A stretch of DNA of 64,000 nt from a virus (lineage: Duplodnaviria; Caudoviricetes): the IMG/VR virus record IMGVR_UViG_3300034071_001210, positions 43,893 to 107,892 of that record; one strand, given 5' to 3'. Made by a program: the position numbers and the translations under genes. The notes beneath the pieces were generated by a model that saw only the letters and a list, made by a program, of their open reading frames with translations, was not told where the DNA came from and ran no database searches. Shown in pieces: positions 27,276 through 43,805 of this stretch. Position 1 is the first letter of the stretch. Each line of letters starts with the position of its first letter.

Positions 27276-27968
27276 ATGGCATACTCATTTTTCCCAAACG
27301 ACTTTCACAATCTTCCAAATTTACAGGACAATGCAACTATGAATTACCTAACACAACATTACAAAAATTTATCGGAACAACTTCAAGCCAAAGTTAATCA
27401 CCTTCAGAACCTTCTAGAGGCATATCCAGGTGGAATGACTCCAGCAAGAATGGATGTATTTAATAAAGGAGTTAGAATACCATTCACTAATGCTACTCCA
27501 GAACAGGAAGCAAGAGCTGATCGTGCACGTGGCCTACGAAACCGAGCAAATGCAACAGATCGCCGAAGAGCCGCAGAAGACCAGGCAAGAGACGAAGCAA
27601 CCGTATCGGGTATGCCAGACTTCCATAATACTGTTATTGCTCACATGGCTACTGCCTTTGGTGATAGATATGGACAAAACACAGGACACGGACGAAAGCT
27701 TACTCTACAGGTTGCCGAAGACCTTCACAAAAGGGCTGGAGAAGGTGGATTCAGAGATTATGCTCATGCAAGTGGTGTCTTGCATGATTACATGCAAGAT
27801 AGTGATCACGTAAGAGATCACAAAGAAGAACAAGCAATTTTAGATCCAACAAAATATGGTGTTCATTCTGACGATATTATGGATGTTGATATGTCAGATG
27901 AAATTAGTGAAGATCATGCAGAGATTTCAGATGATATTATGCAAGGATTGTTAAGAAAGAAACCGTAA
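27276..27968 (+). CDS. Putative internal head protein
   Basis: TATAAATA at 27263; contains MNYLTQHYKNLSEQLQ...LLE segment shared with ORF 48477. Confidence 0.6.
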   Translation: MAYSFFPNDFHNLPNLQDNATMNYLTQHYKNLSEQLQAKVNHLQNLLEAYPGGMTPARMDVFNKGVRIPFTNATPEQEARADRARGLRNRANATDRRRAAEDQARDEATVSGMPDFHNTVIAHMATAFGDRYGQNTGHGRKLTLQVAEDLHKRAGEGGFRDYAHASGVLHDYMQDSDHVRDHKEEQAILDPTKYGVHSDDIMDVDMSDEISEDHAEISDDIMQGLLRKKP

Positions 27969-28266: not shown

Positions 28267-29178
28267 ATGCACGATTCCTTCTTCCCATCCGACAAATTTT
28301 TTGGTCCTGACAACATGTATTTTCAACAAAACCGTCAAAACCTTGAAGAAGGTATGATGGGAGATTTAAGACGAGGAGCCGGAAATATGCTCACAGGTCT
28401 TGGACGGAGACTTGCTGGTGGAGCTCCGGTTGATAATGTCGTAGACCCACAAATTGCCATAGACACCAAAAATAAAGAAATGGCCAGATCCACTCATATT
28501 GGTAGAACTATTAAAAAATTGAGTACAGTATTTGCACTGAATAAAAATACCATTCCTATGGCAATTGCTCACCATAAGAAAAATAGTGAAAATGCACTAT
28601 ACTATGACAGTTCTGAGGTTCCAGACACAGGTATGCCGACAACCAAAAAAGAATATAAACAAGCCAGCAAAGAGAATGCTGCTTATGAGAAGTCTCAAGC
28701 CGGAAGGGTATTATCAAGTGGACATAATTCTATTTTGGGACATTTAGCATCTATGATACATAGATCTTCACAGTCTGCTGCACAACATCCAGATAATAAA
28801 CCAGACGTAGTAATGGATCCAGTACACATAGGACATGGATTTGATTCAGAAAATGTTGCACTTCACAATATGTCAGATGGAGCAAATGGTCGAGGTAGTA
28901 TTTCACACCCGGATCATGAAGCCTATCACAGATGGCAGAGCCGTCCACAAAATGCAAATTATCCATCAGTTCAATCATTCTTCGGACCAAACTCTGGTAC
29001 CTACCATGTAGGAGAAGATTTTGAGCATCTCTTACCGGCTGGTGGTGGTAAGAGTGGTATTCGTGCAGTGAATGCAGCTAACCGTGAAAGGTATCGTGCA
29101 AGAATGCAGGATATCAATACTTTGATGAACCCACAGGATATTCCAGCCGAGTGGAGAGCACCCGGACGAATGGGATAA
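28267..29178 (+). CDS. Putative internal head protein
   Basis: TATAAATA upstream; N-terminus (MHDSFFP) resembles ORF 27276; NLEE possible protease site. Confidence 0.55.
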   Translation: MHDSFFPSDKFFGPDNMYFQQNRQNLEEGMMGDLRRGAGNMLTGLGRRLAGGAPVDNVVDPQIAIDTKNKEMARSTHIGRTIKKLSTVFALNKNTIPMAIAHHKKNSENALYYDSSEVPDTGMPTTKKEYKQASKENAAYEKSQAGRVLSSGHNSILGHLASMIHRSSQSAAQHPDNKPDVVMDPVHIGHGFDSENVALHNMSDGANGRGSISHPDHEAYHRWQSRPQNANYPSVQSFFGPNSGTYHVGEDFEHLLPAGGGKSGIRAVNAANRERYRARMQDINTLMNPQDIPAEWRAPGRMG

Positions 29179-29434: not shown

Positions 29435-29461
29435 CAACACAGCCCCTTGCGGGGCTGTGTT
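29435..29461. terminator. GC-rich hairpin ending the leftmost cassette
   Basis: AACACAGCCCC-TTGC-GGGGCTGTGTT. Confidence 0.75.
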
Positions 29462-29468
29462 GGGTCAC

Positions 29469-29726
29469 TCATTGCACCTCGGGTGGTTCGTATCCCTTGC
29501 GGTAATCGCCCCCGCCGTTGCGGTCCGAGTCATCCTCGGGTGCCGAGTAGTCGAATGGGGGATCGATGTCGCTATCGTCCCCCCACACATCGTGCATGTC
29601 ATACCGCATCTTCTCGCGTTCCATAGCTTCAACCTCCCTATCCCAACAGGCAGGGCAGGCGCATGCAGCGGAACCCAGTGTGCAGGTGCGAGGAGTTTGA
29701 TCGTTATTGGCGTTGGTGCAGCTCAT
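29469..29726 (-). CDS. Leaderless early protein, Cys/acidic
   Basis: ATG 33 nt after promoter motif; CTLGSAACACPAC. Confidence 0.7.
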   Translation of the reverse strand: MSCTNANNDQTPRTCTLGSAACACPACWDREVEAMEREKMRYDMHDVWGDDSDIDPPFDYSAPEDDSDRNGGGDYRKGYEPPEVQ

Positions 29727-29759
29727 ACGAGAATTATACACGAATTTGTCGTGACTGCA
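29727..29759 (-). promoter_or_regulatory. Cassette promoter P1
   Basis: TGCAGTCACGACA-N8-TATAAT-N6-ATG. Confidence 0.85.
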
Positions 29760-29877
29760 GCATAGCAGCACGAATAAATTTATATTCGCGTAACCTGGCA
29801 AACCTGGCCCCACCTGGCAAACACAGGCAACAGCCCCCCTTTCGGGGGGCTGTTGGTTCCCTTCCCTCCCTCGAGGG

Positions 29878-30174
29878 TTATCCGCGGTTCAGGTAGCGTT
29901 CGTATGACTCGTCGTCCATCCGTTCGCCTGTACCGCTGTAGTAGCGGTCATCATCCCCTTCGCGGGGTTCATCCTCATCGTGGCAGGCGGGACCTGCATC
30001 ACAGGCACCCTCGCATGACTCACGATCCGCCTGTGCGTCCAAGTGTTCCTTCAAGTCCGCATCGCGGTCTGCGGCTTCGGTGCATCCGGGGCATAGCCCG
30101 TCTACGTATTGATCCATGCTCGTGCAGGTGCAGGGTAGGTCTGAGTGATTGACGGTGGTGGTGGTGTTTGCCAT
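29878..30174 (-). CDS. Leaderless early protein, Cys/acidic
   Basis: MANTTTTVN; CTC...CPGC. Confidence 0.7.
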   Translation of the reverse strand: MANTTTTVNHSDLPCTCTSMDQYVDGLCPGCTEAADRDADLKEHLDAQADRESCEGACDAGPACHDEDEPREGDDDRYYSGTGERMDDESYERYLNRG

Positions 30175-30207
30175 GTCGGTATTGTACTCGATCTTGTCGT
30201 GACTGCA
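30175..30207 (-). promoter_or_regulatory. Cassette promoter P2
   Basis: TGCAGTCACGACA-N8-TACAAT-N6-ATG. Confidence 0.85.
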
Positions 30208-30223
30208 GCGCAGGGGGTGAAAT

Positions 30224-30424
30224 TTATTTGTTGCAGCGCAGGGTTTCGCAGAACGCATCGTTGTCTGCCAAGTTCGCAGCGAGTTGATCGAGTTCCTGCG
30301 GAGTCATCGCGGCAAACTTAAACGCGGCAACTTCGGCTTCCAATTTGTTGATGCGAGCGTGCAGCGCAGCGATATTGTCCTGATTGACTTTCCATTCCGA
30401 GGGTATGTAGTTCTTTGGGTGCAT
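30224..30424 (-). CDS. Leaderless early small coiled-coil protein
   Basis: ATG at the fixed distance from P3. Confidence 0.7.
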   Translation of the reverse strand: MHPKNYIPSEWKVNQDNIAALHARINKLEAEVAAFKFAAMTPQELDQLAANLADNDAFCETLRCNK

Positions 30425-30457
30425 GGCGGTATTGTACGATACTTTGTTGTGACTGCA
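30425..30457 (-). promoter_or_regulatory. Cassette promoter P3
   Basis: TGCAGTCACAACA-N8-TACAAT-N6-ATG. Confidence 0.85.
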
Positions 30458-30505
30458 GGCCGCAGGCCGTCACCAATTTATCTAAATTTATTTGTGCTCC
30501 CCATC

Positions 30506-30538
30506 TGCAGTCACAACAAACTATCGTACAATACACTC
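30506..30538 (+). promoter_or_regulatory. Cassette promoter P4 (divergent from P3)
   Basis: TGCAGTCACAACA-N8-TACAAT-N6-GTG. Confidence 0.85.
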
Positions 30539-30928
30539 GTGCTACAGAACACCACCTCCACCCGTCCGATCCACTTCCACCTCCAAGCCTCGACTTTGCC
30601 GCTCTCCGCAATTCTGCTCGACCTGCCTGCTAACCTCCCTGCACGCTCCGCGTTCTTGTACAGCGTTCTCGACTCCGGTTGGATTCGTGTTGCGTTCCGC
30701 AAGGATGACGGCACCTGCACGATTCGACTCTGCACTCGCAACCCTACGCTTGTTGCCAAGTTCGGTTCGCGTTACGATGTTCAGGGTATCAAGAATTCGG
30801 AGTTCAATTCAAACGGTCTTGAAACCATCGTGTACTTCGACCATGCGGCAGGTGCGCTCCGGTGCTTCCGTGTGATGCGAGTCGATGGCTGCGGCATCGA
30901 TGCCGTCAGTATCGAGAACAACCACTAA
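30539..30928 (+). CDS. WYL_2/SH3-barrel protein
   Basis: IRVAFRKDDGT..IRLCTRN...YFDH....RCF; in-frame GTG at the promoter-defined position. Confidence 0.7.
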   Translation: MLQNTTSTRPIHFHLQASTLPLSAILLDLPANLPARSAFLYSVLDSGWIRVAFRKDDGTCTIRLCTRNPTLVAKFGSRYDVQGIKNSEFNSNGLETIVYFDHAAGALRCFRVMRVDGCGIDAVSIENNH

Positions 30929-30973
30929 CCCGAACGGGGGGGAGAATTTAAATATTCTCTCCCCCTCCGCGGC

Positions 30974-31006
30974 TGCAGTCACAACAAGATCGCGTATAAT
31001 GCACTC
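30974..31006 (+). promoter_or_regulatory. Cassette promoter P5 (no start codon at +1)
   Basis: TGCAGTCACAACA-N8-TATAAT-N6-ATA. Confidence 0.85.
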
Positions 31007-31090
31007 ATACCTACCCCGCCCGAAGCACCGCCCCTAAGTGGACAACCCCACTTCGAATGACAATGGGCACGCAGAGGCGGGGTAGGTTTC
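31007..31090 (+). ncRNA. Putative structured RNA or 5' leader
   Basis: 12-bp closing stem ACCTACCCCGCC/GGCGGGGTAGGT starting at the predicted TSS; inner helices GCCC/GGGC and AAGTGG/CCACTT. Confidence 0.5.
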
Positions 31091-31124
31091 CCGGTCACTC
31101 AAACTTAACTGAAAGGTCACAACA

Positions 31125-31322
31125 ATGCTCAAGATGATTATCGATGGTGGCTACCAAATGGTTTATGACGCTCAAGGATTGTGGGCTACCCTTGCTCACG
31201 GGTACACGATTGCCCCGGGACAAGAGTTGCAGTTTGCAGAACTCTTTCACTCCGGTACGGACGAGGAACGATTGCTGATCCGCAACAACTTGCTTCACCA
31301 GAAGCAGATGGAACTAATCTAA
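31125..31322 (+). CDS. Hypothetical protein
   Basis: GAAAGG RBS. Confidence 0.7.
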   Translation: MLKMIIDGGYQMVYDAQGLWATLAHGYTIAPGQELQFAELFHSGTDEERLLIRNNLLHQKQMELI

Positions 31323-31377
31323 CGAGGTGGTGCTCGAGACAAGATCCACGCCCCTTCGGGGGCGTGGATCTCATTGA

Positions 31378-31419
31378 TCTACTATCAGCACAGCCCTCTG
31401 GGGCTGTGCTGATAGTTGT
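31378..31419. repeat. ACTATCAG hairpin element H1
   Basis: 16-bp perfect stem 31381-31416 with TCT/TGT flanks. Confidence 0.9.
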
Positions 31420-31478
31420 GGTGGACGGTATGGATGCCGCCGATAACAAGAATATGAAATAAATTGTACACCCTACCC

Positions 31479-31511
31479 TGCAGTCACGACAATATCGCTT
31501 ACAATACGCCC
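31479..31511 (+). promoter_or_regulatory. Cassette promoter P6
   Basis: Consensus motif; ATG at 31512. Confidence 0.85.
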
Positions 31512-31964
31512 ATGCTCTGCACCACTTTCAACAGCGTCTTTGACCTCTTCGCCTCTAACTTCCGTTTCGCCGAGTGCCTGCGTTCCCCCCTCAAGACTGA
31601 GGTCGTGGATGAATTCACGATCCGCAACCGTTCCAACTACACTCGTGTTGAGTGTGGCAATACTTGGGGTTGGGTTGCAGACCTGAATGTCGGTGGCTTG
31701 CGTATCGCTCACACGAACGGATCGAACATGGCTGATGTGTCCACCCGTTCGCTCGATACCGATCACCAAGTGCGTTGCTCATATACTGCGGACGAACTCC
31801 GCAAGATGGCGTACACGATGTTGGCTGCGGCTAACCACATCGACACTCGCGATTCGGAGAAGAATCAACTACTTCGCCGTCCGAACGGTCAACCGCTCCG
31901 TAAGGAGTTCGTATCGTCCCCCGACTTTGACGAATACCTGAAGTACGAACTGAAGGCAGTCTGA
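31512..31964 (+). CDS. Leaderless early hypothetical protein
   Basis: Start set by P6. Confidence 0.75.
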   Translation: MLCTTFNSVFDLFASNFRFAECLRSPLKTEVVDEFTIRNRSNYTRVECGNTWGWVADLNVGGLRIAHTNGSNMADVSTRSLDTDHQVRCSYTADELRKMAYTMLAAANHIDTRDSEKNQLLRRPNGQPLRKEFVSSPDFDEYLKYELKAV

Positions 31965-32017
31965 ACCCTGGAAGGGAGGGACTAGAAAGAAATGAATAAT
32001 TTCTAGTCCCCCCCGTT

Positions 32018-32050
32018 TGCAGTCACGACAAACTAAGGTACAATACGCAC
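32018..32050 (+). promoter_or_regulatory. Cassette promoter P7
   Basis: Consensus motif; ATG at 32051. Confidence 0.85.
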
Positions 32051-32188
32051 ATGGCAGAGAACACCACCAAACCGGATGAAACCCCCCGCAAACCAATTCG
32101 CTGCAACGAAGGCACAGCCCGGGAAGCACGGCTGCGCGACTGCATTCGACTGCTCACCCCAATGAAAGTTCGCAAGGTATCGACATGA
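32051..32188 (+). CDS. 45-aa leaderless protein (absent from ORF track)
   Basis: MAENTTKPDETPRKPIRC...; ATGA overlap with next ORF. Confidence 0.7.
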   Translation: MAENTTKPDETPRKPIRCNEGTAREARLRDCIRLLTPMKVRKVST

Positions 32189-32421
32189 ACAGCACCCTCG
32201 AAATTACCCGGATCCGAAAGACAACCCGGACAATTGAACTGAACCCCAAAGAAATCGCCATCCTCCAGGATATGATCTTTCGCAGGAAGGTAGAGACAAG
32301 ATTGGAAATGAACGGTTACACCTACCGTGATGAATACGGTTCAGACTTTCAAATCGAAGCGGACTTCTACTATAAAGCGTTGGGATTTCTTCAGACCAAA
32401 CTTGACAACCTCACCAAGTAA
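32185..32421 (+). CDS. Hypothetical protein
   Basis: Translationally coupled ORF. Confidence 0.7.
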   Translation: MNSTLEITRIRKTTRTIELNPKEIAILQDMIFRRKVETRLEMNGYTYRDEYGSDFQIEADFYYKALGFLQTKLDNLTK

Positions 32422-32436
32422 AGGTAGACTACCAAC

Positions 32437-32700
32437 ATGAAACACGTTCCCAAGTCTCTGCTGTATGCTCAAGTGGACAACATCAACGCCGTATTGCAGA
32501 CCAAGCCCGGTAACCGATTAGTTCTGCAACACGCCTTCGGCGGGTTTCAGTTGCAGCAAGAGGTTATGTACCCTCCGTCATGTAGTGTAGGATTCATTTC
32601 AATCTCGACCGACTATGTGAGCAAGCGTGAAATGAACGATTATCTGAACGCACTTGTGGTGGGCATGGCACTCCGTGCTAACCAAGTGCAACCGATCTAA
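32437..32700 (+). CDS. Hypothetical protein
   Basis: AAGG RBS; LQHAFGGFQL. Confidence 0.7.
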   Translation: MKHVPKSLLYAQVDNINAVLQTKPGNRLVLQHAFGGFQLQQEVMYPPSCSVGFISISTDYVSKREMNDYLNALVVGMALRANQVQPI

Positions 32701-32771
32701 CGAGGTGGTGCTCGCAACAACTGAAGAGGATTCGTCCCTGCCCACCCTTCGGGGTGGGCTAGGTTGTTATA

Positions 32772-32810
32772 TCTACTATCAGATTTGGCCCCCCCAAATC
32801 TGATAGTTGT
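32772..32810. repeat. ACTATCAG hairpin element H2
   Basis: 14-bp stem 32775-32807, CCCCC loop. Confidence 0.9.
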
Positions 32811-32828
32811 GGATGGGACGGGACGGCC

Positions 32829-32848
32829 TGTGGATAACTTGTGGATAA
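32829..32848 (-). promoter_or_regulatory. Two tandem perfect DnaA boxes
   Basis: TGTGGATAA (= TTATCCACA) at 32829-32837 and 32840-32848. Confidence 0.55.
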
Positions 32849-32877
32849 GTATTTCAAATAATTTTATGCTCACTTGC

Positions 32878-32910
32878 TGCAGTCACGACAATATCGCTTA
32901 CAATACCGAC
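32878..32910 (+). promoter_or_regulatory. Cassette promoter P8
   Basis: Consensus motif; ATG at 32911. Confidence 0.85.
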
Positions 32911-33495
32911 ATGAACACCACCACCACCACCAACGTCCGAAACCGAGCCTACTACGCCGCAGAGAATGCTATCCTCAACTGCCGTGCTACTATGAACTTC
33001 CGCTCTCTTGCCGAGTGTGCTACGCCCGATGTCCGTGCTGCTGCCGAGACATGGTACGCCGAGGCGGGTCAGTTTGCTCGAGACCTCCCGCGTCACGATT
33101 GGTCATTCGAAACTGCCTGCGCTGTAGTCGCGGCATTCTCGCCTCGGATCCGATGGGATCAGAATAAGCGTAAGGCGTTCCAATACGCTCATGGCATCAT
33201 GCCAAAGGGTCTGCGCTCCCATATTGCCGCCGCAGACCGATGCGTAGCCAAAGGATTCGATGGCTTGGATGGTCTGAAGACAAACGCCTTTGCCCGGGCT
33301 ATTGCCGGGGATCTGAATGCGGTCGTGATCGACATTTGGATGTGTCGGGCTGCGGGGCTCGGTAAGGATTCGCTGACAACCGGACAGTACCGTGCAATTT
33401 CCGATGCCGTGCGAACGGTAGCCCGGGAGCACAACATGGCTCCCGCCGTTATGCAGGCACTGATTTGGATCGTGGTCAGGGGGAAGGCACAATGA
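32911..33495 (+). CDS. Conserved phage protein, possibly HhH DNA-glycosylase-like fold
   Basis: WY, AAFSPR..W..N, GLKTNAF, VVIDIWM, MQALIW motifs. Confidence 0.6.
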   Translation: MNTTTTTNVRNRAYYAAENAILNCRATMNFRSLAECATPDVRAAAETWYAEAGQFARDLPRHDWSFETACAVVAAFSPRIRWDQNKRKAFQYAHGIMPKGLRSHIAAADRCVAKGFDGLDGLKTNAFARAIAGDLNAVVIDIWMCRAAGLGKDSLTTGQYRAISDAVRTVAREHNMAPAVMQALIWIVVRGKAQ

Positions 33496-33629
33496 ACCAC
33501 CGCCCCGGCAAATTCGTCCACGATGCCTTTCGCGAAGGGATTCGCCTGCGCTCCAAAACCTGGGGCAAGAAAACGCGGGATCCCCGGAAGGCTCGGAGGG
33601 ACGGGAAACAGGAACTCCGTTCAATCTAA
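33492..33629 (+). CDS. Small basic protein (45 aa)
   Basis: ATGA overlap; MNHRPGKFVHDAFREG. Confidence 0.55.
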   Translation: MNHRPGKFVHDAFREGIRLRSKTWGKKTRDPRKARRDGKQELRSI

Positions 33630-33662
33630 CAATATCACCGGAAACGGTGATATTTTTTATTA

Positions 33663-33703
33663 TCTACTATCAGGATTTGGCCCATCTAAATCCTGATAGT
33701 TGT
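33663..33703. repeat. ACTATCAG hairpin element H3
   Basis: 13-bp stem plus G-T/G-C pairs, 33666-33700. Confidence 0.9.
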
Positions 33704-33762
33704 CCAGGACGGGATGGACTTGACCGATAATAATAATATGAAATAATTTGTACACCCTGTGC

Positions 33763-33795
33763 TGCAGTCACGACAATTTGTATTACAATACCGAC
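33763..33795 (+). promoter_or_regulatory. Cassette promoter P9
   Basis: Consensus motif; ATG at 33796. Confidence 0.85.
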
Positions 33796-34191
33796 ATGAA
33801 GAACGCCACCTCCATCATCTCCGTCCTCCTCATTCCCGCAGACCTCACCAAGCCATGCAGCATGGTCAACATCCGTAAGGGTGACTACGCTCTGATCGAT
33901 ATGTACAAGTGGATGGACTGCGACTATGTGCAACGCCTCGAAACTCCCAAGAAGAACATGATTCTGTGGGTTGACGAAGAGGGAAGCATCGAGTCGCTCA
34001 AGCGCAAGCCTGTACTCAATGTTCGCGGCAGTATTCTTGCCGGACAGCCAATCATGGGCAACGTGATTCTTGCCGGACAAGATTCCCTGTACGGTGTTGA
34101 CGGTATCGAGTTTGGTACCGTCAAGGAAATGATCAAGCGTCTTGAGAACAGCGCACAGCAAGTGATTGCCGAACATCCTTCCCTGAAATAA
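33796..34191 (+). CDS. DUF3846-like protein
   Basis: LWVDEEG, LNVRGS, IMGNVIL motifs. Confidence 0.7.
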   Translation: MKNATSIISVLLIPADLTKPCSMVNIRKGDYALIDMYKWMDCDYVQRLETPKKNMILWVDEEGSIESLKRKPVLNVRGSILAGQPIMGNVILAGQDSLYGVDGIEFGTVKEMIKRLENSAQQVIAEHPSLK

Positions 34192-34263
34192 TGAGGTGGT
34201 GCTCAGGGGGATGGGATTCGTTCCCATCCCCTACCGCCCTCAAATAAATCTTTCTTTCTTCTG

Positions 34264-34296
34264 TGCAGTCACAACAAACCCAGGTATAATACTCAT
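34264..34296 (+). promoter_or_regulatory. Cassette promoter P10
   Basis: Consensus motif; ATG at 34297. Confidence 0.85.
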
Positions 34297-34596
34297 ATGA
34301 CAATGACAACCACCGACATCTCTGAACTTCGTACTCTCCTCTCAGGAGGATATGTCGTAAATGTTTCCTTCACAAAGAAGGACAGGACAATACGCGAAGC
34401 CCAGATCACTCGTAACCTGCGATTGATGCCGATGACATCTCATCCAAAGAATGTTCGTAAGGTGGATCCGAAATACATCTTCGCGTTTGATATTGATAAG
34501 CAAGATTGGATTTGCTTTCACGAATCACAGTTCGTTTCATTGTCTCATCCTTGGCGCTTGGAGAACGAACAACTAGCATTATGCCAGGGGGCTTGA
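34297..34596 (+). CDS. WYL_2/SH3-barrel protein
   Basis: VSFTKKDRTIREAQITRN...FDIDKQDWICF. Confidence 0.75.
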   Translation: MTMTTTDISELRTLLSGGYVVNVSFTKKDRTIREAQITRNLRLMPMTSHPKNVRKVDPKYIFAFDIDKQDWICFHESQFVSLSHPWRLENEQLALCQGA

Positions 34597-34706
34597 TCAG
34601 CCCTATAACCGCCATCGGTGCAACGAGAAGCGGCAGTATGAGAGTCTCAATAGAGTCCTGGGCTTATACTAATAGCCACCCTTCTTTAAGGGTGGTTATT
34701 TTATTA

Positions 34707-34748
34707 TCTACTATCAGGAAGTCGCCCCCTCGACTTCCTGATAGTTGT
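34707..34748. repeat. ACTATCAG hairpin element H4
   Basis: 15-bp perfect stem 34710-34745. Confidence 0.9.
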
Positions 34749-34803
34749 GGACGGCATGGACGGTACCGATAACAAGAATATAAAATAATTTGATATACCT
34801 GTT

Positions 34804-34836
34804 TGCAGTCACGACAGGATCGTATACAATACCGTC
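34804..34836 (+). promoter_or_regulatory. Cassette promoter P11
   Basis: Consensus motif; ATG at 34837. Confidence 0.85.
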
Positions 34837-35028
34837 ATGACCACACCCGAACCTTATAACACCGTTGAAGACTTCATGGATACCGATGAACCCACCGAGG
34901 CTGAAATGATTGCCGAACTGATGGAGGAAGGCTACACACAGGACGAAGCCAAGCGTATGATCGGTGACGAGTACGATGCCGATGATGAAGACTCCTACGA
35001 GCCACTCGAAGACGAGGATTCAGAATGA
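34837..35028 (+). CDS. Very acidic small protein (possible DNA mimic)
   Basis: 63 aa, D/E-rich, leaderless. Confidence 0.7.
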   Translation: MTTPEPYNTVEDFMDTDEPTEAEMIAELMEEGYTQDEAKRMIGDEYDADDEDSYEPLEDEDSE

Positions 35029-35339
35029 GTTACAAGATGACCATCCATATGAAGAAAGCCAGGGCAAGCCCCTTTGAGAAGACCTTTGAAAGACGAGCAG
35101 AGAGAATGCTCGCTCTTGTGATGCGTACTCTTGTCAGAGTAGACTTTGGTGACAAGGATGTAGGAATCTTTATTGAGAACTGCCCTATGGTTAACATCCC
35201 GATGGGATTTCTAAAGTTTGATGACAAGCGTTGGACGGGAAAAGAAATTGCTCAGTTTTGCAAATATATTGATCTTTCTTCTGAGTTTGGCGTTAATGTC
35301 ACCTTCCTCGACCCCGAACCTGTTACAATACCAACATGA
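35025..35339 (+). CDS. Hypothetical protein
   Basis: ATGA-coupled. Confidence 0.7.
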   Translation: MSYKMTIHMKKARASPFEKTFERRAERMLALVMRTLVRVDFGDKDVGIFIENCPMVNIPMGFLKFDDKRWTGKEIAQFCKYIDLSSEFGVNVTFLDPEPVTIPT

Positions 35340-35554
35340 TCCCATCCACCACCAACATCTCCGACCTGATTGAAACCATTCGCAAGTTTGTCGATGAGAC
35401 TCCGGATTGGATGGAGAGCGACAAATATGTTGCTAGGCTTGGAGTTGCATACCACATTCTCACAACAATGTCTGACCCGGATATGGTCACAGACGAAGAG
35501 TACGAGTTCATCATCGCCATTCACAACACCATCAAGGAACGGAACGCACAATGA
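35336..35554 (+). CDS. Hypothetical protein
   Basis: ATGA-coupled. Confidence 0.7.
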   Translation: MIPSTTNISDLIETIRKFVDETPDWMESDKYVARLGVAYHILTTMSDPDMVTDEEYEFIIAIHNTIKERNAQ

Positions 35555-35895
35555 GTACAAACAAGTTTGAAGGATTCTTCGAGAGTGACAACCACCCCGC
35601 CATGAAGATGGTTGTTCCAACACCATCACAGATCATTGAGACTCTGATGATGATCTGCGGACAGAATCATCAGTTCTACAAGGATGCAAGCATTCGCCTT
35701 ATCATCTGTGGTGGACTTGATGTTGTCGAGAAGCACATCATCAAGGCTCGTGATGAAGGACGGGATCCCGGCATTCATGTTGGCTACGCAGCCTTTATGA
35801 TGCTTCTTGCGGATCGCATGGTGGATTCGTATGATGACTACGCAGGTGACAAAGAACGCGAACTGTTTCCTCTTCAGTATGATGAGGATGAATGA
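35551..35895 (+). CDS. Hypothetical protein
   Basis: ATGA-coupled. Confidence 0.7.
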   Translation: MSTNKFEGFFESDNHPAMKMVVPTPSQIIETLMMICGQNHQFYKDASIRLIICGGLDVVEKHIIKARDEGRDPGIHVGYAAFMMLLADRMVDSYDDYAGDKERELFPLQYDEDE

Positions 35896-36054
35896 TTTCA
35901 ATACACAGCCTCACATAAGTCAGTTAAATTAGAGCGCAGTAGATGCTTCGAAATTACGACTGCCGTGGGGCAACCGTAGCAGCCAATTTCCTGGCTTGCC
36001 GTATGAAAAAAGGTATGCGGGTGGAGACCCGGCTACAACAGGGTCTCCAAGTTT

Positions 36055-36127
36055 GGGAACGTAGCGCAGTTGGTAGCGCAAATGACTTTTAATCATTTGG
36101 TCGTGGGTTCGAGCCCCACCGTTCCCA
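36055..36127 (+). tRNA. tRNA-Lys(UUU)
   Basis: Cloverleaf GGGAACG/CGTTCCC, anticodon loop CTTTTAA, TTCGA T-loop. Confidence 0.93.
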
Positions 36128-36137
36128 CTAAGGAGAT

Positions 36138-36383
36138 ATGATGAAAACGGCAGAAATTAAAACCTTGCAGAAGACATTGAAAGCCATCAAAGACAATGAC
36201 GTTAAAGATGCTGTTCACTATATGATTAAGTTTCTACATGAACACGGTCATGCAGTTGCCATCTTCACGCCAGAGGAAATGGTTGAAACTACAGCCACAG
36301 ATGAGGAGATTGAAGAGTCGATGATTACTGCTGGGTTTATGACAATGGATTGCTTTAAGATCAACAAAGAAGAAGACGAATAA
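36138..36383 (+). CDS. Hypothetical protein
   Basis: AAGGAG RBS. Confidence 0.7.
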   Translation: MMKTAEIKTLQKTLKAIKDNDVKDAVHYMIKFLHEHGHAVAIFTPEEMVETTATDEEIEESMITAGFMTMDCFKINKEEDE

Positions 36384-36392
36384 GGAAACATC

Positions 36393-36689
36393 ATGACAGA
36401 TCGAGATCATTGTATGGAAGTCGTGAAGGCGTATGACAAAGTAACCATCGTGATGGATTGCATCATGGAGCATTGGTTAGAAGGCAACTGCAATCCACCC
36501 AAGGAACTGATCGATGAGTACTTCGAGACAAAGGATGCAGCCCTTCAGGCGTTGTATAATGACTTCGAGAACATCAAAGCGAATCAAGTCTTTGCTGAAC
36601 GAACTCGTGGTATGAACAGAGCATTTTATAAAAAAATTGATAAACAATTTGGAGTAACTGAAACGCCCATGTTGTTTGAAGAGGATTGA
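36393..36689 (+). CDS. Hypothetical protein
   Basis: AAGGA RBS. Confidence 0.7.
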   Translation: MTDRDHCMEVVKAYDKVTIVMDCIMEHWLEGNCNPPKELIDEYFETKDAALQALYNDFENIKANQVFAERTRGMNRAFYKKIDKQFGVTETPMLFEED

Positions 36690-36694
36690 TTTAC

Positions 36695-36767
36695 GGCACG
36701 GTAGTCCAAAGGCAGAGACAAACGACTTAAAATCGTTCAAGTGTGGGTTCGACTCCCACTCGTGCTA
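36695..36767 (+). tRNA. tRNA-Leu(UAA), short variable arm
   Basis: GGCACGG/TCGTGCT acceptor, AACGA-CTTAAAA-TCGTT. Confidence 0.88.
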
Positions 36768-36772
36768 CATCT

Positions 36773-36846
36773 ATTCCCGTAACTCAGTTGGATAGAGTAA
36801 CAGATTTCTAATCTGTAGGTCGTTGGTTCGAATCCAACCGGGAATG
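36773..36846 (+). tRNA. tRNA-Arg(UCU)
   Basis: ATTCCCG/CGGGAAT acceptor, ACAGA-TTTCTAA-TCTGT. Confidence 0.92.
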
Positions 36847-36977
36847 CTTGACTTGATTGAAAGGAGAGACATAATGTATTCAATACCATATTTTATGTTT
36901 GACGGTGTTCATAAAACCGTATAGCGGTAACCTACGGTTGCACGGACAAAGAGGCATCCGTATGAAGGCTTCATTAC

Positions 36978-37052
36978 AGAAGGGTGGCTGAAATTAGATA
37001 TAGCGCACACCTTATAAGTGTGAGTATATGGGTGCAATTCCCATCCCTTCTA
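36978..37052 (+). tRNA. tRNA-Ile(UAU), non-canonical T-loop
   Basis: AGAAGGG/CCCTTCT acceptor, CACAC-CTTATAA-GTGTG, T-loop TGCAATT. Confidence 0.8.
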
Positions 37053-37054
37053 TT

Positions 37055-37366
37055 ATGAAAACTATTAAAACTCATATTCCCCAATTTCACTTTGAACCAT
37101 TACTAATGATGTCTTGGCAAGTAGACCATGATGTGATCCATTTCAAGATGGAAGATGCTTTTGACATTGAAGAAATTGATCTTCGTTTAGTCGTTGGTCT
37201 TACTGATGATGGGATGCCTTCTGTTGATGAAGATGACATCATTGAGGCTGTTGCTGAATCCGTTTACGGTCATGAGTATGAGGTGTATCCGTACAAGGCA
37301 ATTCGTTTTCTGAAAAACGATTTGATTCCATATATAAACGAACATTTTCCAAAACCCATTTCATAA
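37055..37366 (+). CDS. Acidic hypothetical protein
   Basis: ATG directly after tRNA-Ile. Confidence 0.65.
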   Translation: MKTIKTHIPQFHFEPLLMMSWQVDHDVIHFKMEDAFDIEEIDLRLVVGLTDDGMPSVDEDDIIEAVAESVYGHEYEVYPYKAIRFLKNDLIPYINEHFPKPIS

Positions 37367-37466
37367 GTTCCTGCCCGTGAGAGTCGTCTGGGTCATACCA
37401 TCTTAATCTTCTTTAAGATTAAGATAACATGGGATATGACGCTCCTACACGGGCAGGAACTTTTTT
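37365..37466 (+). terminator. Long (~100 nt) hairpin followed by U-tract
   Basis: AAGTTCCTGCCCGTG/CACGGGCAGGAACTT outer stem, ATCTTAATCTT/AAGATTAAGAT inner stem. Confidence 0.65.
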
Positions 37467-37474
37467 ATTAATAA

Positions 37475-37516
37475 TCTACTATCAGGAGTTCCTTTATTGG
37501 AACTCCTGATAGTTGT
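37475..37516. repeat. ACTATCAG hairpin element H5
   Basis: 15-bp perfect stem 37478-37513. Confidence 0.9.
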
Positions 37517-37573
37517 GGATGGGACAGGACGTGACCGATAATAATAATGTCAAATATTTGCTCAACCCAATCT

Positions 37574-37606
37574 TGCAGTCACAACATTTGCGGTTACAAT
37601 GTACAT
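37574..37606 (+). promoter_or_regulatory. Cassette promoter P12
   Basis: Consensus motif; ATG at 37607. Confidence 0.85.
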
Positions 37607-38551
37607 ATGAACAGCGACAACTACAATTTCTTATCGTCTGATGTCTCCCTCGTCCCTGCCAAGAACGACACCTTCGTTCCGTGGGGTCACTTCGAGGACA
37701 TCGCAACCATCCTCGCCTCCAAGCACTTTGCTCCCGTGTACATCACGGGTATGTCGGGCAACGGCAAGACCACTATGGTCGAGCAGATCTGTGCGTCTGC
37801 CGGACGCGAGATCATTCGCGTCAACATCACCGCCGAGACTGATGAAGATGACCTCATCGGTGGATTTCGTCTTATCAACGGTGAAACCAAGTTCGTGTTC
37901 GGTGGCGTGATTCAAGCCATGCAGCGTGGAGCGATTCTGCTCTTGGATGAGATCGACCTTGGTTCGGAGCGCATGATGTGCTTGCAGCCTGTGCTTGAAG
38001 GCAAGGGCATCTATGTGAAGAAGATCAGTCAGTATGTGCGTCCTGCTGCCGGGTTCAACATTGTTGCTACTGCCAACACCAAGGGCAAGGGCGAGTCTGA
38101 TCGGTTTGTCGGTACTCGTGTTATGAACGAAGCGTACCTTGATCGGTTCTCGTATTGGTTCGAGCAGGACTACGCGGACAAGACCATCGAAGCCCGTATC
38201 ATCATTCGCAAGATGGGTGCATTCGGCAAGGTGGACAAGGAGTTTGCTCAGTACCTCACGAAGTGGGCGGATACAATTCGTCTTGGCTTCAAGGAAGGTG
38301 GACTCGATGACATTATCACGACTCGCCGACTCGAAGAGATCTGCAAGGCATTCGCCATCTTCGGCAACAAGGAGAAGGCAATCAAGTTGACTCTGACGCG
38401 ATTCGATGCGTCAACCAAGGAGGCGTTCTACAATTTGTACACGAAGATCGACCCAACAATTCTGCCCGTGCCTGAAGGCATGGACAAGCCAATTCAGTAT
38501 GCAGGACAGCAGCCTGTTGCTCCGGACACTAACTACGCCGTTAACGCCTAA
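37607..38551 (+). CDS. MoxR/CobS-like AAA+ ATPase
   Basis: GMSGNGKT Walker A, LLLDEID Walker B, ATANTKGKG, NEAYLDRF, ITTRRL. Confidence 0.92.
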   Translation: MNSDNYNFLSSDVSLVPAKNDTFVPWGHFEDIATILASKHFAPVYITGMSGNGKTTMVEQICASAGREIIRVNITAETDEDDLIGGFRLINGETKFVFGGVIQAMQRGAILLLDEIDLGSERMMCLQPVLEGKGIYVKKISQYVRPAAGFNIVATANTKGKGESDRFVGTRVMNEAYLDRFSYWFEQDYADKTIEARIIIRKMGAFGKVDKEFAQYLTKWADTIRLGFKEGGLDDIITTRRLEEICKAFAIFGNKEKAIKLTLTRFDASTKEAFYNLYTKIDPTILPVPEGMDKPIQYAGQQPVAPDTNYAVNA

Positions 38552-38569
38552 CCGAAAGAGGACACTACC

Positions 38570-38848
38570 ATGCCATATCTTAACAAGCGCAATCGTTTCA
38601 TCGCAGCCGCAAAGCAGTACGCCGAGGATCACAAGAAGAATAATTTCTTCTTCACCAAGGACGAACTCAGGACAATCGCTTCTTCCATCAACATGAAAGG
38701 CGCACCAACCTGGGTGTTGAATGAATGCAAATGTGATGTTCGTACTCTTGCTCACAGCAAGAAGTGCTACGACATGAGTGCTTTGATTCAGCCTGTTTCA
38801 GTTCCCGTGATGGTTCCAAGTATTGTGGTTCACCCAGTCTCAGTCTGA
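38570..38848 (+). CDS. Hypothetical protein
   Basis: GAGG RBS; lies between AAA and VWA genes. Confidence 0.7.
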   Translation: MPYLNKRNRFIAAAKQYAEDHKKNNFFFTKDELRTIASSINMKGAPTWVLNECKCDVRTLAHSKKCYDMSALIQPVSVPVMVPSIVVHPVSV

Positions 38849-38914
38849 CGCTGTTTGTAGTGTTTAATGTGACATAGACACGACCTCTCCCACTCGTTGT
38901 GGGTGAGGTTGCTG

Positions 38915-38955
38915 TCTACTATCAGGATTCGGCCCCTCTGAATCCTGATAGTTGT
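38915..38955. repeat. ACTATCAG hairpin element H6
   Basis: 13-bp stem plus G-T/G-C pairs, 38918-38952. Confidence 0.9.
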
Positions 38956-39014
38956 GAAGGACAGGATGGGACTGGCTGATAATAATAATATGAAATAATT
39001 TGGTGGGTATGGTT

Positions 39015-39047
39015 TGCAGTCACGACAGTATCGGTTACAATATGCAC
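39015..39047 (+). promoter_or_regulatory. Cassette promoter P13
   Basis: Consensus motif; ATG at 39048. Confidence 0.85.
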
Positions 39048-41126
39048 ATGAACACATCTCTCTCCATCTTCGCCAAGGCACTCGCGTCCGAAAACCTCTC
39101 GTTCTCCTTTAGCAACAAGGCTGAGACTGCATCGTTCGATGTCAAGTCCCGGCACCTCGTCATGCCCATTTGGAAGGTTTCCGAAACGGTGCAGACCATG
39201 TTGATCGCCCATGAGATCAGTCACGCCCTGTGGACTCCTTACGAGTTGTCCCGTACTCTCCTTGATGCTGCCGAAGCCGAGGGGTACAAGATCGACAAGT
39301 TGCAGCGTATCGCCAACATGATCGAGGATGTTCGTATTGAGAAGTTGATGAAGCAGAAGTTCCCCGGTACTCGCCGTGACTTCTTCTTGGGGTACAAGGA
39401 GATCAACGACCTTGACCTCTTTCAGTTCAACACCTTGGACTTGAGTGCCATGACTCTCAACTCTCGCCTCAACATTCACTTCAAGTGGGGTGTTCCGGGA
39501 TTCATTGATGTTCAACTCTCTGCCCAAGAGCAGGAGATCGCGGATATGGTGGACAGCGTTGTCACTTTCGAGCAGTGCATCGAATTGGCAAAGTACCTGT
39601 ACGGTGATCCGGATGCTGATGGCAAGAAGCATGAAGTCGAGGACAACAACAAGGGTTTGGCATTAGGAAACTCTATCGATGGTTCTCAAGATCCTTCGTT
39701 TGAGAATATGTTGAGTGGATTGGCAAGTCGCAAGGGTTCGCCGTTGGCTTCCACGACTGTGGTCATCGGTGGAGTGAAGGACTTGAACCGACAGATCATC
39801 AGCACCGAGCAGGTGTTGGAATCGTTCACCATTCATCCTTGGGCAGAAGAGACTCTCAACAACACCCCTGACCTCACGGCATACCGTACCTTCGTCCGTG
39901 AGTCTGATGCATTCGTTCGTCAGTTGGTTGCTCAGTTCGAGCGCAAGAAGGCAGCGGACGAGATTCGCCGTGAACGCCCAAAGCAGACGGGTCAGTTGAA
40001 CCTTGATCGTCTTCATCAATACCGCACCCATGACGATATCTTCCTGTCGAAGATCGTTAAGAAGGATGGCAAGAATCACGGGGTCATCTTTATGATCGAC
40101 TTCTCCGGTTCGATGCAGCCTACGCTCAATCACGCAATCCTTCAGGTTCTTCAGTTGGTTTGGTTCTGTGAGAAGGCAAAGATTCCGTTTGAGGTGTTTG
40201 GCTTCACCGATGTTGGTGAGCATTACATTCCGAACCAACCCGGTTTCGTCAAGGGTCAGGATTCACTTGCGAATGAAGCGCATACTTGCCGTAACAGTAT
40301 TCGCTACGGTGATGCTCGACTGATTACGCTTGCTTCATCCCGTGACGATGCGGCAAAGCGTGAACAACTTCTTGCCCTTGTCTACGAGACTTTCGTAACC
40401 AACACCCGTATGACTCCTGCAACGCTTCGTCTGAGCGGAACCCCAACGGTGGAAACTGTGGCTGTTGCTTCACAGTTTATGAAAGAGTGGATTGTGGCAA
40501 ACAATGTGCAGATTCCTACGCTCATGGTTGTCACGGACGGTGAGCCAAATGGTTTCAACCTTGTGAACGATGCCACAGATTACACCACCTATGGTGATGC
40601 AGGAAGTCTGACTGTGGTGAACCATGTTGCCGATACCGTGACTCGAACTACGATTACGAATCGTGACAATCTGTCGAACGCAGTCATCAGTACGATGCTT
40701 GATTCGATGCGGACAAAGTTTGGTGCGAGAATCGTTGGAATGTTTGTTGGTGGTAACAAGGCATTGCCTACCGGGATTTACAATAAGTTCTGCATTGCAT
40801 ACAACGAGAACAACTCGTACCAAGATCACGAACGATACTTGGCTGCAAGTGAGATGTACAAGTCTGAAGGTTGCATTCTTGCTCACTCCGAATGCTCACA
40901 AGGATACGATGAGTTCTTCATCATCAAGACTCCGCAGATCGTCAAGGACGAGGACGCGATTGCCGATAGCGGAACCTTCACCAAGATCAAGAACACCTTC
41001 ATTCGTACAATGGGTAAGCGTTCTTGCAGTCGAGTGTTCCTCTCACGGTATGTGGACATTGTGTCCGGACAGCCTATTCGTAAGGGGGCTGATGCTCTCT
41101 ACGGAAAGAAGACGGCTAATGCATAA
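39048..41126 (+). CDS. CobT-like protein: N-terminal HExxH domain and C-terminal VWA domain
   Basis: AHEISHALWTP, NMIEDVRIEK, MIDAS DFSGSM, LSGTP, VTDGE. Confidence 0.88.
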   Translation: MNTSLSIFAKALASENLSFSFSNKAETASFDVKSRHLVMPIWKVSETVQTMLIAHEISHALWTPYELSRTLLDAAEAEGYKIDKLQRIANMIEDVRIEKLMKQKFPGTRRDFFLGYKEINDLDLFQFNTLDLSAMTLNSRLNIHFKWGVPGFIDVQLSAQEQEIADMVDSVVTFEQCIELAKYLYGDPDADGKKHEVEDNNKGLALGNSIDGSQDPSFENMLSGLASRKGSPLASTTVVIGGVKDLNRQIISTEQVLESFTIHPWAEETLNNTPDLTAYRTFVRESDAFVRQLVAQFERKKAADEIRRERPKQTGQLNLDRLHQYRTHDDIFLSKIVKKDGKNHGVIFMIDFSGSMQPTLNHAILQVLQLVWFCEKAKIPFEVFGFTDVGEHYIPNQPGFVKGQDSLANEAHTCRNSIRYGDARLITLASSRDDAAKREQLLALVYETFVTNTRMTPATLRLSGTPTVETVAVASQFMKEWIVANNVQIPTLMVVTDGEPNGFNLVNDATDYTTYGDAGSLTVVNHVADTVTRTTITNRDNLSNAVISTMLDSMRTKFGARIVGMFVGGNKALPTGIYNKFCIAYNENNSYQDHERYLAASEMYKSEGCILAHSECSQGYDEFFIIKTPQIVKDEDAIADSGTFTKIKNTFIRTMGKRSCSRVFLSRYVDIVSGQPIRKGADALYGKKTANA

Positions 41127-41147
41127 GGCTTAGTAATACAAAGCACA

Positions 41148-41185
41148 GACCCCGTACCTGGAAGGAGAGAGCCAGGTACGGGGTT
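41148..41185 (+). terminator. Hairpin after VWA gene
   Basis: ACCCCGTACCTGG/CCAGGTACGGGGT. Confidence 0.65.
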
Positions 41186-41196
41186 ATGTCATTGCA

Positions 41197-41235
41197 GCTA
41201 CTATCAGATCCTTCTTTTCAGGATCTGATAGTTGT
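41197..41235. repeat. ACTATCAG hairpin element H7
   Basis: 13-bp perfect stem 41200-41232 followed by GGACGGGATGGACGG. Confidence 0.9.
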
Positions 41236-41368
41236 TATCGGACGGGATGGACGGTACGGACGATAACCGCGGATGGCCTCAAAGATTCTGTAATAAATTC
41301 GAGCTAATCTGAATTGTGGTACAGTTGCTTGACTACCCCCATATATGGTGTATAGTATAAGTCTGTTC

Positions 41369-41674
41369 ATGCGCCCTATAATCCCCGAGTCCTACGTGAA
41401 ATATTCTCGTCCTTATAGGACTCGGGGTTATGGGACGTTACATGTTATCGGTATGTCATTTCTTCTCAGTATTCTGAGCCTTGCATTGGTTATAGGCTGT
41501 GCTATACTATTCATGATACTCGCAGGTATTATTCACCCTTCCAGAATACTCGGACAGTATTCAGCTGGACAAGATTCTCAAAAAATTCTGAATATTTCTG
41601 AGGGCCCAGAAGAAAAAATCTACTATCAGGGCTTCCTGGATGTCTACCGTATGCGTAGGCCGGACGGGATCTAG
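41369..41674 (+). CDS. Possible membrane protein (doubtful)
   Basis: Hydrophobic stretch; TTGACT promoter at 41329; 3' end overlaps a degenerate hairpin element. Confidence 0.35.
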   Translation: MRPIIPESYVKYSRPYRTRGYGTLHVIGMSFLLSILSLALVIGCAILFMILAGIIHPSRILGQYSAGQDSQKILNISEGPEEKIYYQGFLDVYRMRRPDGI

Positions 41675-42072
41675 ACTCGGACGGGACCTGGAGAGGGTTC
41701 GGCTACTCTCCTCTCTGGGTCCTGGACGGGATATAGCGTTTTGTAAGGCTATTGCAGTTTTTTAAGAATATTTGCGTACTTCCAGGTACTTCCTGGATGG
41801 CGTTTGTCAAATTCTCTAAGAAATTGCAAATATTTAATAAAATTTGTAGTATTTACTTGACTCGTAGAATCGATTCTAAGCCCTTGGGGGGTCTTGGACG
41901 CGATTTGATGCCTTGAAGGTGCTCAAAGGGCTCTAAGGGGGGTTCAGAGACGATTAGAGGGGGTTTGGGTGACACTCACTAACTGTACATCCCTCAAATT
42001 TTCTTTAAATTTCTTCACCCACTTAGTAATTTTCATTCCCCACAATGCCCCATAATACCCCACTCCATTATT

Positions 42073-43209: not shown

Positions 43210-43265
43210 GGTATAATATTTATTGAATAGTTGACTTATTGGTATTATGTTCTATAATTAATCCC

Positions 43266-43805
43266 ATGAGAAATGCAAATTTACCTTATCACCTATATGT
43301 AAATGTTAAAAATTCATTTCTTGGGCAGAATATGCCTGATGGGTATACACCTGCCATGTGGCACGCTGTGTATTCTCGTCCCGGTCAGTTGATCTGCTGC
43401 CATGTGATTCTTCAATCAGGTGCTCATTGGTCAGGTCTTCCGTTGTCTGCCTTATCGACTACTGATGTATTTGATGATAATAGTAATATTAACATTCAAC
43501 CTTGGGGTGGAATGGGAAATAATATTGAAACTTTTATGGCAACCTACTTAGAAGGGCTTTCCGTGAATGTCTTTCGTGCAGAAAAAGAGGGTAGGCACAC
43601 CGGAATTATACTTGATTGGGAAGATGGGTATTCTCGTTACCCTGCTGAACATAAGCCTCTAAGTCTTATTGCTCTTGACTGTGGATACTTTGCTCTCGTT
43701 CCCAATAATTACTTTACGGTGAAGGATAAGCATTTTGTGAATGATAAACATTCAAATAATTTAAAATTTTATAAACGTGGTGAGACTGTCTATTGGGAGC
43801 GTTAA
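43266..43805 (+). CDS. Conserved phage hypothetical protein
   Basis: TTGACT...TATAAT promoter; SGAHWSGLPL, EHK, PNN motifs. Confidence 0.7.
   Translation: MRNANLPYHLYVNVKNSFLGQNMPDGYTPAMWHAVYSRPGQLICCHVILQSGAHWSGLPLSALSTTDVFDDNSNINIQPWGGMGNNIETFMATYLEGLSVNVFRAEKEGRHTGIILDWEDGYSRYPAEHKPLSLIALDCGYFALVPNNYFTVKDKHFVNDKHSNNLKFYKRGETVYWER

Follow-up and report, generated by a model that had tools for sequence, protein, structure and literature searches.

The window analyzed here is a stretch of 64,000 nucleotides from a tailed virus (Caudoviricetes; IMG/VR record IMGVR_UViG_3300034071_001210, positions 43,893 to 107,892), and all positions below are counted from its first letter. Pfam matches to gp32, the gp15 tail-sheath stabiliser, a neck protein, baseplate proteins, both terminase subunits and the gp33 late co-activator identify it, by gene content, as a T4-like myovirus. 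Its large terminase shares about 53% identity with its counterparts in marine cyanomyoviruses, pelagimyophages and Melnitz methylophages, and its CobS is 55-60% identical to cyanophage CobS. The window has 33% GC overall, but a 12 kb island (29.4-41.7 kb) has 45-53% GC against 31-38% elsewhere, and the GC content at third codon positions (GC3) is 0.58 in island genes and 0.20 in the remaining genes. By megablast, neither the island nor 20 kb of backbone matched any GenBank phage. At least half of the sampled words of the island are present in 18 public lake-water or freshwater metagenome runs, which points to an uncultured freshwater phage. The subject of this work is a 13-nt element, TGCAGTCACRACA, here called the box, that lies at the -35 position of 13 predicted promoters (P1 to P13) in this island:

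29435 to 41700, both strands: GC-rich, predicted early island, with divergent transcription from 30457/30506.
P1, 29724 to 29759, minus strand: box, N8, TATAAT, N6, ATG; open reading frame (ORF) 29469-29726 for a Cys-rich acidic protein of 85 aa.
P2, 30172 to 30207, minus strand: predicted leaderless ATG; 98-aa ORF 29878-30174.
P3, 30422 to 30457, minus strand: predicted leaderless ATG; 66-aa ORF 30224-30424; stands back to back with P4, where transcription of the island diverges.
P4, 30506 to 30541, plus strand: predicted leaderless GTG; WYL_2 protein of 129 aa, 30539-30928.
P5, 30974 to 31124, plus strand: ATA at +1; predicted structured GC-rich leader or small RNA (31007-31124), then ORF 31125-31322.
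P6, 31479 to 31514, plus strand: predicted leaderless ATG; 150-aa ORF 31512-31964.
P7, 32018 to 32053, plus strand: predicted leaderless ATG; three-gene unit 32051-32700.
P8, 32878 to 32913, plus strand: predicted leaderless ATG; DUF7178 protein 32911-33495.
P9, 33763 to 33798, plus strand: predicted leaderless ATG; DUF3846 protein 33796-34191.
P10, 34264 to 34299, plus strand: predicted leaderless ATG; WYL_2 protein 34297-34596.
P11, 34804 to 34839, plus strand: predicted leaderless ATG; long unit including four tRNA genes.
P12, 37574 to 37609, plus strand: predicted leaderless ATG; CobS-like AAA ATPase 37607-38551.
P13, 39015 to 39050, plus strand: predicted leaderless ATG; CobT/vWA-like protein of 692 aa, 39048-41126.

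Thirteen exact matches to the box, and no more, are found in the window. They fall between 29747 and 39027, three of them on the minus strand and ten on the plus; near matches with one or two mismatches are absent, and 100 dinucleotide-preserving shuffles of the window gave no match at all. TAYAAT lies exactly 8 nt past the box in all 13 copies. In 12 of them a start codon (ATG in 11, GTG at 30539) follows exactly 6 nt past TAYAAT, 33 nt from the first base of the box. An earlier note on this DNA had listed thirteen copies with this invariant geometry, and both its coordinates and its counts proved correct, 29759, 30207 and 30457 being 5' ends on the minus strand. Position 29727 is the -1 of P1, whose ATG is 29726-29724. 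The sole copy without a start codon at +1 is that at 30974, where ATA stands instead and a leader of about 115 nt, GC-rich and self-complementary, separates it from the ORF at 31125. Relatives carry the same ATA, or TCA variants, at this +1, and the leader RNA had no match among Rfam families.

A metagenome scan for the box yielded 98 loci; 58 loci have at least two exact copies (the window included; some records occur in both collections). For information content, 229 copies from the window and related contigs were aligned and collapsed to 44 distinct downstream contexts. Positions -33 to -21 are invariant, one of them being R: the box is intact in 227 of the 229 copies across the 58 loci, and of the two variants one has a single mismatch and the other has two. 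This bears out the claim that the box covers the -35 position and the upstream half of the spacer with conservation far past what sigma-70 needs. An A/T block (-55 to -47) followed by a C-rich linker lies upstream; we take its place and composition to be those of a distal UP subsite. Between box and gene, A-20, T-17 and G-13 are semi-conserved, TAYAAT occupies -12 to -7, and A-6, C-5, C-1 and ATG follow, while the TGn motif is missing from most box promoters. From the ATG to about +20 there is a three-base ACC periodicity, ACC making up 24% of codons 2-7 against 1.9% of codons in island gene bodies, and the stretch of codons 2-7 is 79% A+C. The functional unit, as read from this alignment, extends from about -60 to +20 and includes the coding start. 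An A/C-rich coding start inside the module fits selection for an unstructured 5' end in a leaderless mRNA.

The edges of the box are informative. Positions -35, -34 and -19 to -14 differ between sites, yet they are site-specific across genomes. Gene conversion would homogenise the flanks as well, so an invariant block with sharp edges on both sides argues for direct selection on the 13 bases. The -10 stands at its fixed distance in 227 of 228 box copies, and the start codon geometry at +1 holds in 39 of the 44 gene contexts. The exceptional copy (locus L079, metagenome contig Ga0208088_1013594) has its box fused to a short post-stop motif, TAATGAGGTGGTGCTC, with neither -10 nor gene, and this fusion looks like the scar of a cassette deletion. 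Scans of IMG/VR with half-boxes returned chance matches only and no intermediate variants. One box match in a 1.3-Mb metagenome contig lies inside an ORF of the opposite strand and was set aside as chance. Literature searches for the motif string returned unrelated primers only, and the word leaderless was found in cyanophage papers only in reference-list entries.

Relatives without the box (G001-G003) were found by scanning IMG/VR with conserved hairpin feet. For two of these contigs, G001 (91.8 kb) and G002 (64 kb), synteny with the window extends across tens of kb at 66-82% nucleotide identity, and both have the same AT-rich backbone with an island of 50-57% GC; between window and sister, the proteins are 80% (CobS) and 56% (CobT) identical. 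The cassette plan of the sister islands is also the same, namely a hairpin, a T-rich block, a C-run, the promoter, 6 nt, ATG and ACC-rich codons. Across G001-G003, the island promoters are predicted to be leaderless and are of the form TTGACW-N17-TAYMAT, with T-15 in 88%, G-14 in 100% and low information in the spacer; 24 of the 28 candidates match TTGACA at four or more of the six positions, and the filter inflates the -35 figures. In G001 the cobS and cobT promoters have TTGACT, 17 nt and TACAAT (followed at cobS by N6-ATG), where the window has the box, 8 nt and TACAAT. The -10-proximal half of the spacer is identical at the two cobT promoters. The orthologous cobS and cobT promoters differ only in the -35 and upstream-spacer part. 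A trace of the other promoter type is present in the window itself:

35311 to 35338, plus strand: sister-type promoter relic in the end of the upstream ORF, with spacer, TACAAT, N6 and the ATG of gene 35336-35554.

This relic matches a working TTGACA promoter of G001 nearly base for base but has itself lost the -35, and it speaks for ancestral island promoters of the TTGACW type. Since the sisters have TTGACW-N17-TGn at the same cassettes and at cobS and cobT, the window lineage has swapped the -35 and TGn for the box. Two sigma contacts were given up at all island promoters and one rigid 13-bp element was gained. What is new here is this lineage-wide replacement of -35 and TGn by an invariant box. 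It also strengthens the analogy with the MotA box of T4 middle promoters drawn in the earlier note, because the sister phages keep TTGACW-N17-TGn-TAYAAT in the corresponding places.

Very probably, the box sites are promoters that give leaderless early mRNAs. This reading follows from the consensus -10, the UP-like block, the fixed distance to the start codon, the sister promoters and the setting in a T4-like variable region. The host core RNA polymerase with its primary sigma factor would read the -10 and its alpha subunits would bind the UP-like block, as the consensus and the sister phages suggest. Transcription would start on the A of the ATG and give an mRNA without a leader, and the box would stand in for the contacts that the sister phages make through the TTGACW -35 and the TGn extended -10. 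Contigs that match island genes at 90-99% identity occur in four lake metatranscriptome runs. In two studies, RNA contigs start at 37618-37621, or 11-14 nt into cobS (predicted +1 at 37607); this is at most a weak hint, as metatranscriptome contigs cannot show transcript starts and the parts of the island that they leave uncovered are no evidence.

The combined reading, in which these early leaderless promoters are served by a dedicated protein, other than sigma region 4, that reads the box, is in our judgment probable on balance. The box is as invariant as the critical -10 bases, it has sharp edges, -35 and TGn were lost jointly, and degenerate ordinary promoters coexist with it in the same phage and are found in the sisters as well; these four points argue for a dedicated reader, and a coordinated change at more than a dozen promoters argues that the reader changed. 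Such a sequence-specific protein would act in place of the contact between sigma region 4 and the -35, by the same logic as MotA on T4 middle promoters or a class II activator. It could be phage-encoded, virion-delivered or host-encoded, and would place the GC-rich island under separate control.

Several observations weigh against a dedicated reader. The promoters still have YTG at -34 to -32, the canonical 16-nt register and the UP-like block, so that polymerase alone might suffice. In this respect the term non-canonical, used before for these promoters, was overstated: the -10 is consensus, the UP-like block lies at -55 to -47, YTG fills the first three -35 positions and the register is 16 nt, whereas the placement of the box at the -35 holds. 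No candidate for a box-binding protein, be it an activator, a sigma factor or a virion-delivered protein, was found in the 64-kb window, the island proteins being mostly orphans or domains of unknown function (WYL_2, DUF7178, DUF3846). MotA and AsiA are not among the Pfam families reported for 95 different window ORFs (in a 55-ORF scan, 25 of 27 families were listed). One metatranscriptome contig crosses P13. Finally, the identical 27-nt pattern occurs at orthologous sites in two Alkalimonas species (L015; L017, positions 319-345). There it leads a series of three tandem promoters, which are followed by an element resembling the boxA antiterminator of rrn operons, and the site, with a TTGCAG spaced at 16 nt, is probably a promoter of the rrn P1 type. 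The box sequence is therefore compatible with an ordinary sigma-70 promoter.

These points bear on the simplest alternative, that the box promoters are plain, very strong promoters of the host polymerase with no extra factor, YTGCAG serving as a weak -35 at 16 nt and the UP element and perfect -10 doing the work as in rrn P1. The other box bases would then have been fixed by the tuning of strength or DNA shape in a huge phage population. The UP-like block is correctly placed for this, the TTGACW-N16 class of the phage uses the same register, the Alkalimonas site shows the identical pattern in an rrn-type promoter, and T4 early promoters also carry extra consensus positions (PMC2988021). However, no known sigma-70 contact makes -28 to -21 as invariant as -11A and -7T, the sister promoters and the phage's own promoters outside the island are normally degenerate in -35 and spacer, and dropping a consensus -35 together with TGn would weaken a promoter read by polymerase alone. 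We consider this explanation rather unlikely.

The place of the box, overlapping the -35 and spacer as operators typically do, and its presence at all island units, which suits coordinated shut-off, could also mean that it is an operator through which a phage repressor turns off the whole early island, initiation requiring only UP and -10. The loss of repression at one unit of 13 would be tolerable, yet just 2 of 229 copies deviate; the joint loss of TTGACW and TGn is left unexplained; and the motif, read by eye, has no dyad symmetry (4 of 6 symmetric pairs are complementary). An operator is thus very unlikely, and an activator or specificity factor is more likely than a repressor, because almost no copy deviates where loss at one unit could be borne.

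Phage sigma factors such as SPO1 gp28 redirect polymerase through class-specific elements, and the box could be the -35-type element of an alternative sigma factor, of phage or host, that uses a TAYAAT-like -10; a class-specific upstream element at a fixed distance from the -10 agrees with this. Apart from the T4 late system, no sigma-like gene was recognized in the window, and to our knowledge the box resembles no known alternative-sigma consensus. Compared by eye with the consensi for sigma-28, sigma-54, sigma-32, CRP, LexA, PhoB, NtcA and lambda cII, it fits none, which we give as a lead only. A search of 185,579 bacterial genomes with the full pattern found seven single matches, among them the two Alkalimonas sites, where about 17 are expected by chance, and none of the genomes had multiple copies. 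There is thus no sign of a host regulon, or of a prophage, with the exact motif, and the lack of multi-copy sites in those genomes counts against an alternative sigma factor as well. We regard the alternative-sigma explanation as most improbable. As regards a dedicated reader, the window encodes a small winged-helix protein (17015-17251), which the sister lineage has also kept.

The island is also a place of gene exchange. The 203 complete first ORFs behind box promoters represent 146 distinct proteins, 16 families and 32 upstream contexts. Four upstream contexts carry two to three unrelated families and one family is found behind seven contexts, while the varied genes behind one upstream context are mostly N-terminal variants of one WYL_2 family and not eight different genes. 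The gene content of the island differs between relatives, and the contigs of relatives very often end in it, consistent with assembly breaks at repeats. The mixing of families and contexts, together with the L079 scar, matches the gene shuffling described for the promoter-early stem-loop (PeSL) cassettes of T4-type phages (Arbiol et al. 2010, PMC2839356; Comeau et al. 2014, PMC4122927). Terminator hairpins precede the box promoters, and a second hairpin with conserved feet precedes 6 of the 13:

31390-31440, 32775-32815, 33675-33710, 34705-34745, 37480-37515 and 38920-38955: second hairpin, with feet CTACTATCAG ... CTGATAGTTG.

The interior of this second hairpin covaries freely and a GGA-rich tract follows it. 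Its distance to the box is variable (66-78 nt), so it is no phased part of the promoter, and since it also stands before the ordinary promoters of the sisters it is independent of the box. From their layout we class the box promoters as leaderless early cassettes of the PeSL type, a trait that the earlier note had not recognized. PeSLs have been proposed as recombination substrates (PMC2839356, PMC4122927), genes are exchanged at the modules and the L079 scar ends right after the box, and all three would agree with a box that is mainly a recombination signal for cassette crossover, its part in the promoter being incidental. But the sisters shuffle similar cassettes without the box, no recombinase gene is linked to it, and a fixed distance to -10 and ATG is a constraint of transcription. 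A role mainly in recombination is hardly credible.

Two further promoter classes are present in the window. Ordinary promoters outside the island, which the earlier note had mentioned, were found in six copies:

43231 to 43268, plus strand: TTGACT-N16-TATAAT-N7-ATG promoter, predicted leaderless, canonical class.
44229, 45190, 55176 and 55441, plus strand, and 25840, minus strand: other TTGACW-N16-TATAMT promoters outside the island.

At all six the start codon lies 6-7 nt past the -10, hence they too would be leaderless. T4-type late TATAAATA promoters are also present, and four of them are 4-5 nt before an ATG (27263, 28255, and 49329 and 6614 on the minus strand); the remaining late genes have leaders with Shine-Dalgarno sites. 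The box class accordingly takes its place as a third class beside the TTGACW and T4-late classes, as had been suggested. Leaderless geometry, on these predicted starts, is general in the phage and not peculiar to the box class. The TTGACW-N16 promoters kept outside the island imply that the host polymerase evidently reads ordinary -35 hexamers. GC3 is 0.19-0.35 for the genes behind this canonical class, except for one at 0.52; GC-rich codon usage thus accompanies the box class.

The codon usage of the island bears on the time of its expression. The P11 unit contains four tRNA genes:

36055 to 37052, plus strand: tRNA-Lys(ttt), tRNA-Leu(taa), tRNA-Arg(tct) and tRNA-Ile(tat), inside the P11 unit.

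The codons they read are used seldom by island genes and often by the other genes of the phage: AAA, TTA, AGA and ATA make up 24, 3, 4 and 5% of their codon families in the island, against 71, 45, 54 and 31% elsewhere. This suggests that the island is translated by host tRNAs before phage tRNAs exist, and that the phage tRNAs, made early, later serve the AT-rich genes. The island would then be immediate-early, so that the reader of the box would be host-encoded or virion-delivered.

Some neighboring features were also recorded. Two perfect DnaA-box-like 9-mers (TGTGGATAA) lie at 32829-32848, in direct orientation and 2 nt apart, about 30-50 nt upstream of the P8 box. The pair is kept in relatives, and it could be linked to regulation by DnaA or to a replication origin. 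At the left edge of the island, two genes with leaderless late promoters, 27276-27968 (230 aa) and 28267-29178 (303 aa), encode proteins with a common N-terminus, M..SFFP.D, which may, as a speculation, be a capsid-targeting signal of injected proteins. Neither protein had a family match or a match in the protein Atlas. In the sister contigs the 303-aa protein has no homologue and the 230-aa protein has a weak partial match only (41-51% over 55-71 aa). A search for related loci with the 303-aa gene gave only close relatives, cut at the island edge. A protein of 1195 aa (19342-22929) had no match by tblastn in GenBank phages, nor in the syntenic sister contigs, and may be a host-range determinant that differs between the box and TTGACW lineages.

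How phages take over host transcription is known in detail for a few model phages only. In the lineage of the window an entire promoter set has acquired a new upstream recognition element, whereas its sisters retain the ordinary one; this points to a specific, findable factor, and the orthologous promoters with and without the box offer a clean comparative before-and-after pair for finding the adaptor. The module unites transcription specificity, leaderless translation with an A/C-rich coding start, and a codon usage that agrees with whether phage tRNAs are present or not. It would be a compact, portable unit of early-gene expression in uncultured freshwater phages.

Compared with known systems, lambda cI expressed from PRM is also leaderless, starting at the A of its AUG with a -10 that ends 6 nt upstream. 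That is one regulatory gene, whereas in this phage leaderless geometry appears to be the rule for early genes, canonical-class genes and part of the late genes. PeSL cassettes share with the box modules the setting in a T4-like phage whose variable (hyperplastic) region has a cluster of numerous, nearly identical intergenic modules, the stem-loop or terminator, A/T-rich upstream block and early promoter beside the start codon, and the insertion, deletion or replacement of genes at the modules between close relatives. These are three of the four defining features of PeSLs. The fourth, a sigma-70-like -35 at N17 with a Shine-Dalgarno site, differs: the box module has neither Shine-Dalgarno site nor leader and its -35 is replaced, while the sister lineage has the -35/-10 part and is also leaderless. 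Unlike PeSLs, moreover, the island is GC-richer than its genome (by about 25 points in GC and about 38 in GC3) and the first codons belong to the module. The T4 early promoters with UP, -35, TGn and -10, called 'uber' promoters (PMC2988021), are closely matched by those of G001-G003, whereas the box promoters keep UP and -10 without the consensus -35 and TGn.

The nearest architecture is that of T4 middle promoters, where a MotA box centered at -30 replaces the -35, the -10 stays stringent, and AsiA takes part by sigma appropriation (Hinton 2010, PMC2988021). Both systems are a separate temporal or regulatory promoter class of a T4-like phage with a consensus -10 and a class-specific box (-33 to -21 in the window) instead of the -35, and the center near -30 and the distance to the -10, about 12-13 bp, are also similar if only the first 8 bases of the box are counted. 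However, the MotA consensus (a/t)(a/t)TGCTT(t/c)a (PMC2988021) has only TGC, at the start of each box, in common with the element described here, the MotA box of about 9 bp tolerates change whereas the 13-bp box is essentially invariant, and the box promoters differ in having an UP-like block and leaderless geometry. By motif and layout, the box system is analogous in architecture and probably not a member of the MotA/AsiA family, and both proteins have been reported to be lacking in relatives of this marine and freshwater phage branch (PMC7029224). We therefore put forward, tentatively and as less than an even prospect, that a T4-like branch without MotA and AsiA independently evolved a second replacement of the -35, in which an adaptor acting on a 13-bp box controls a codon-partitioned, leaderless set of immediate-early genes.

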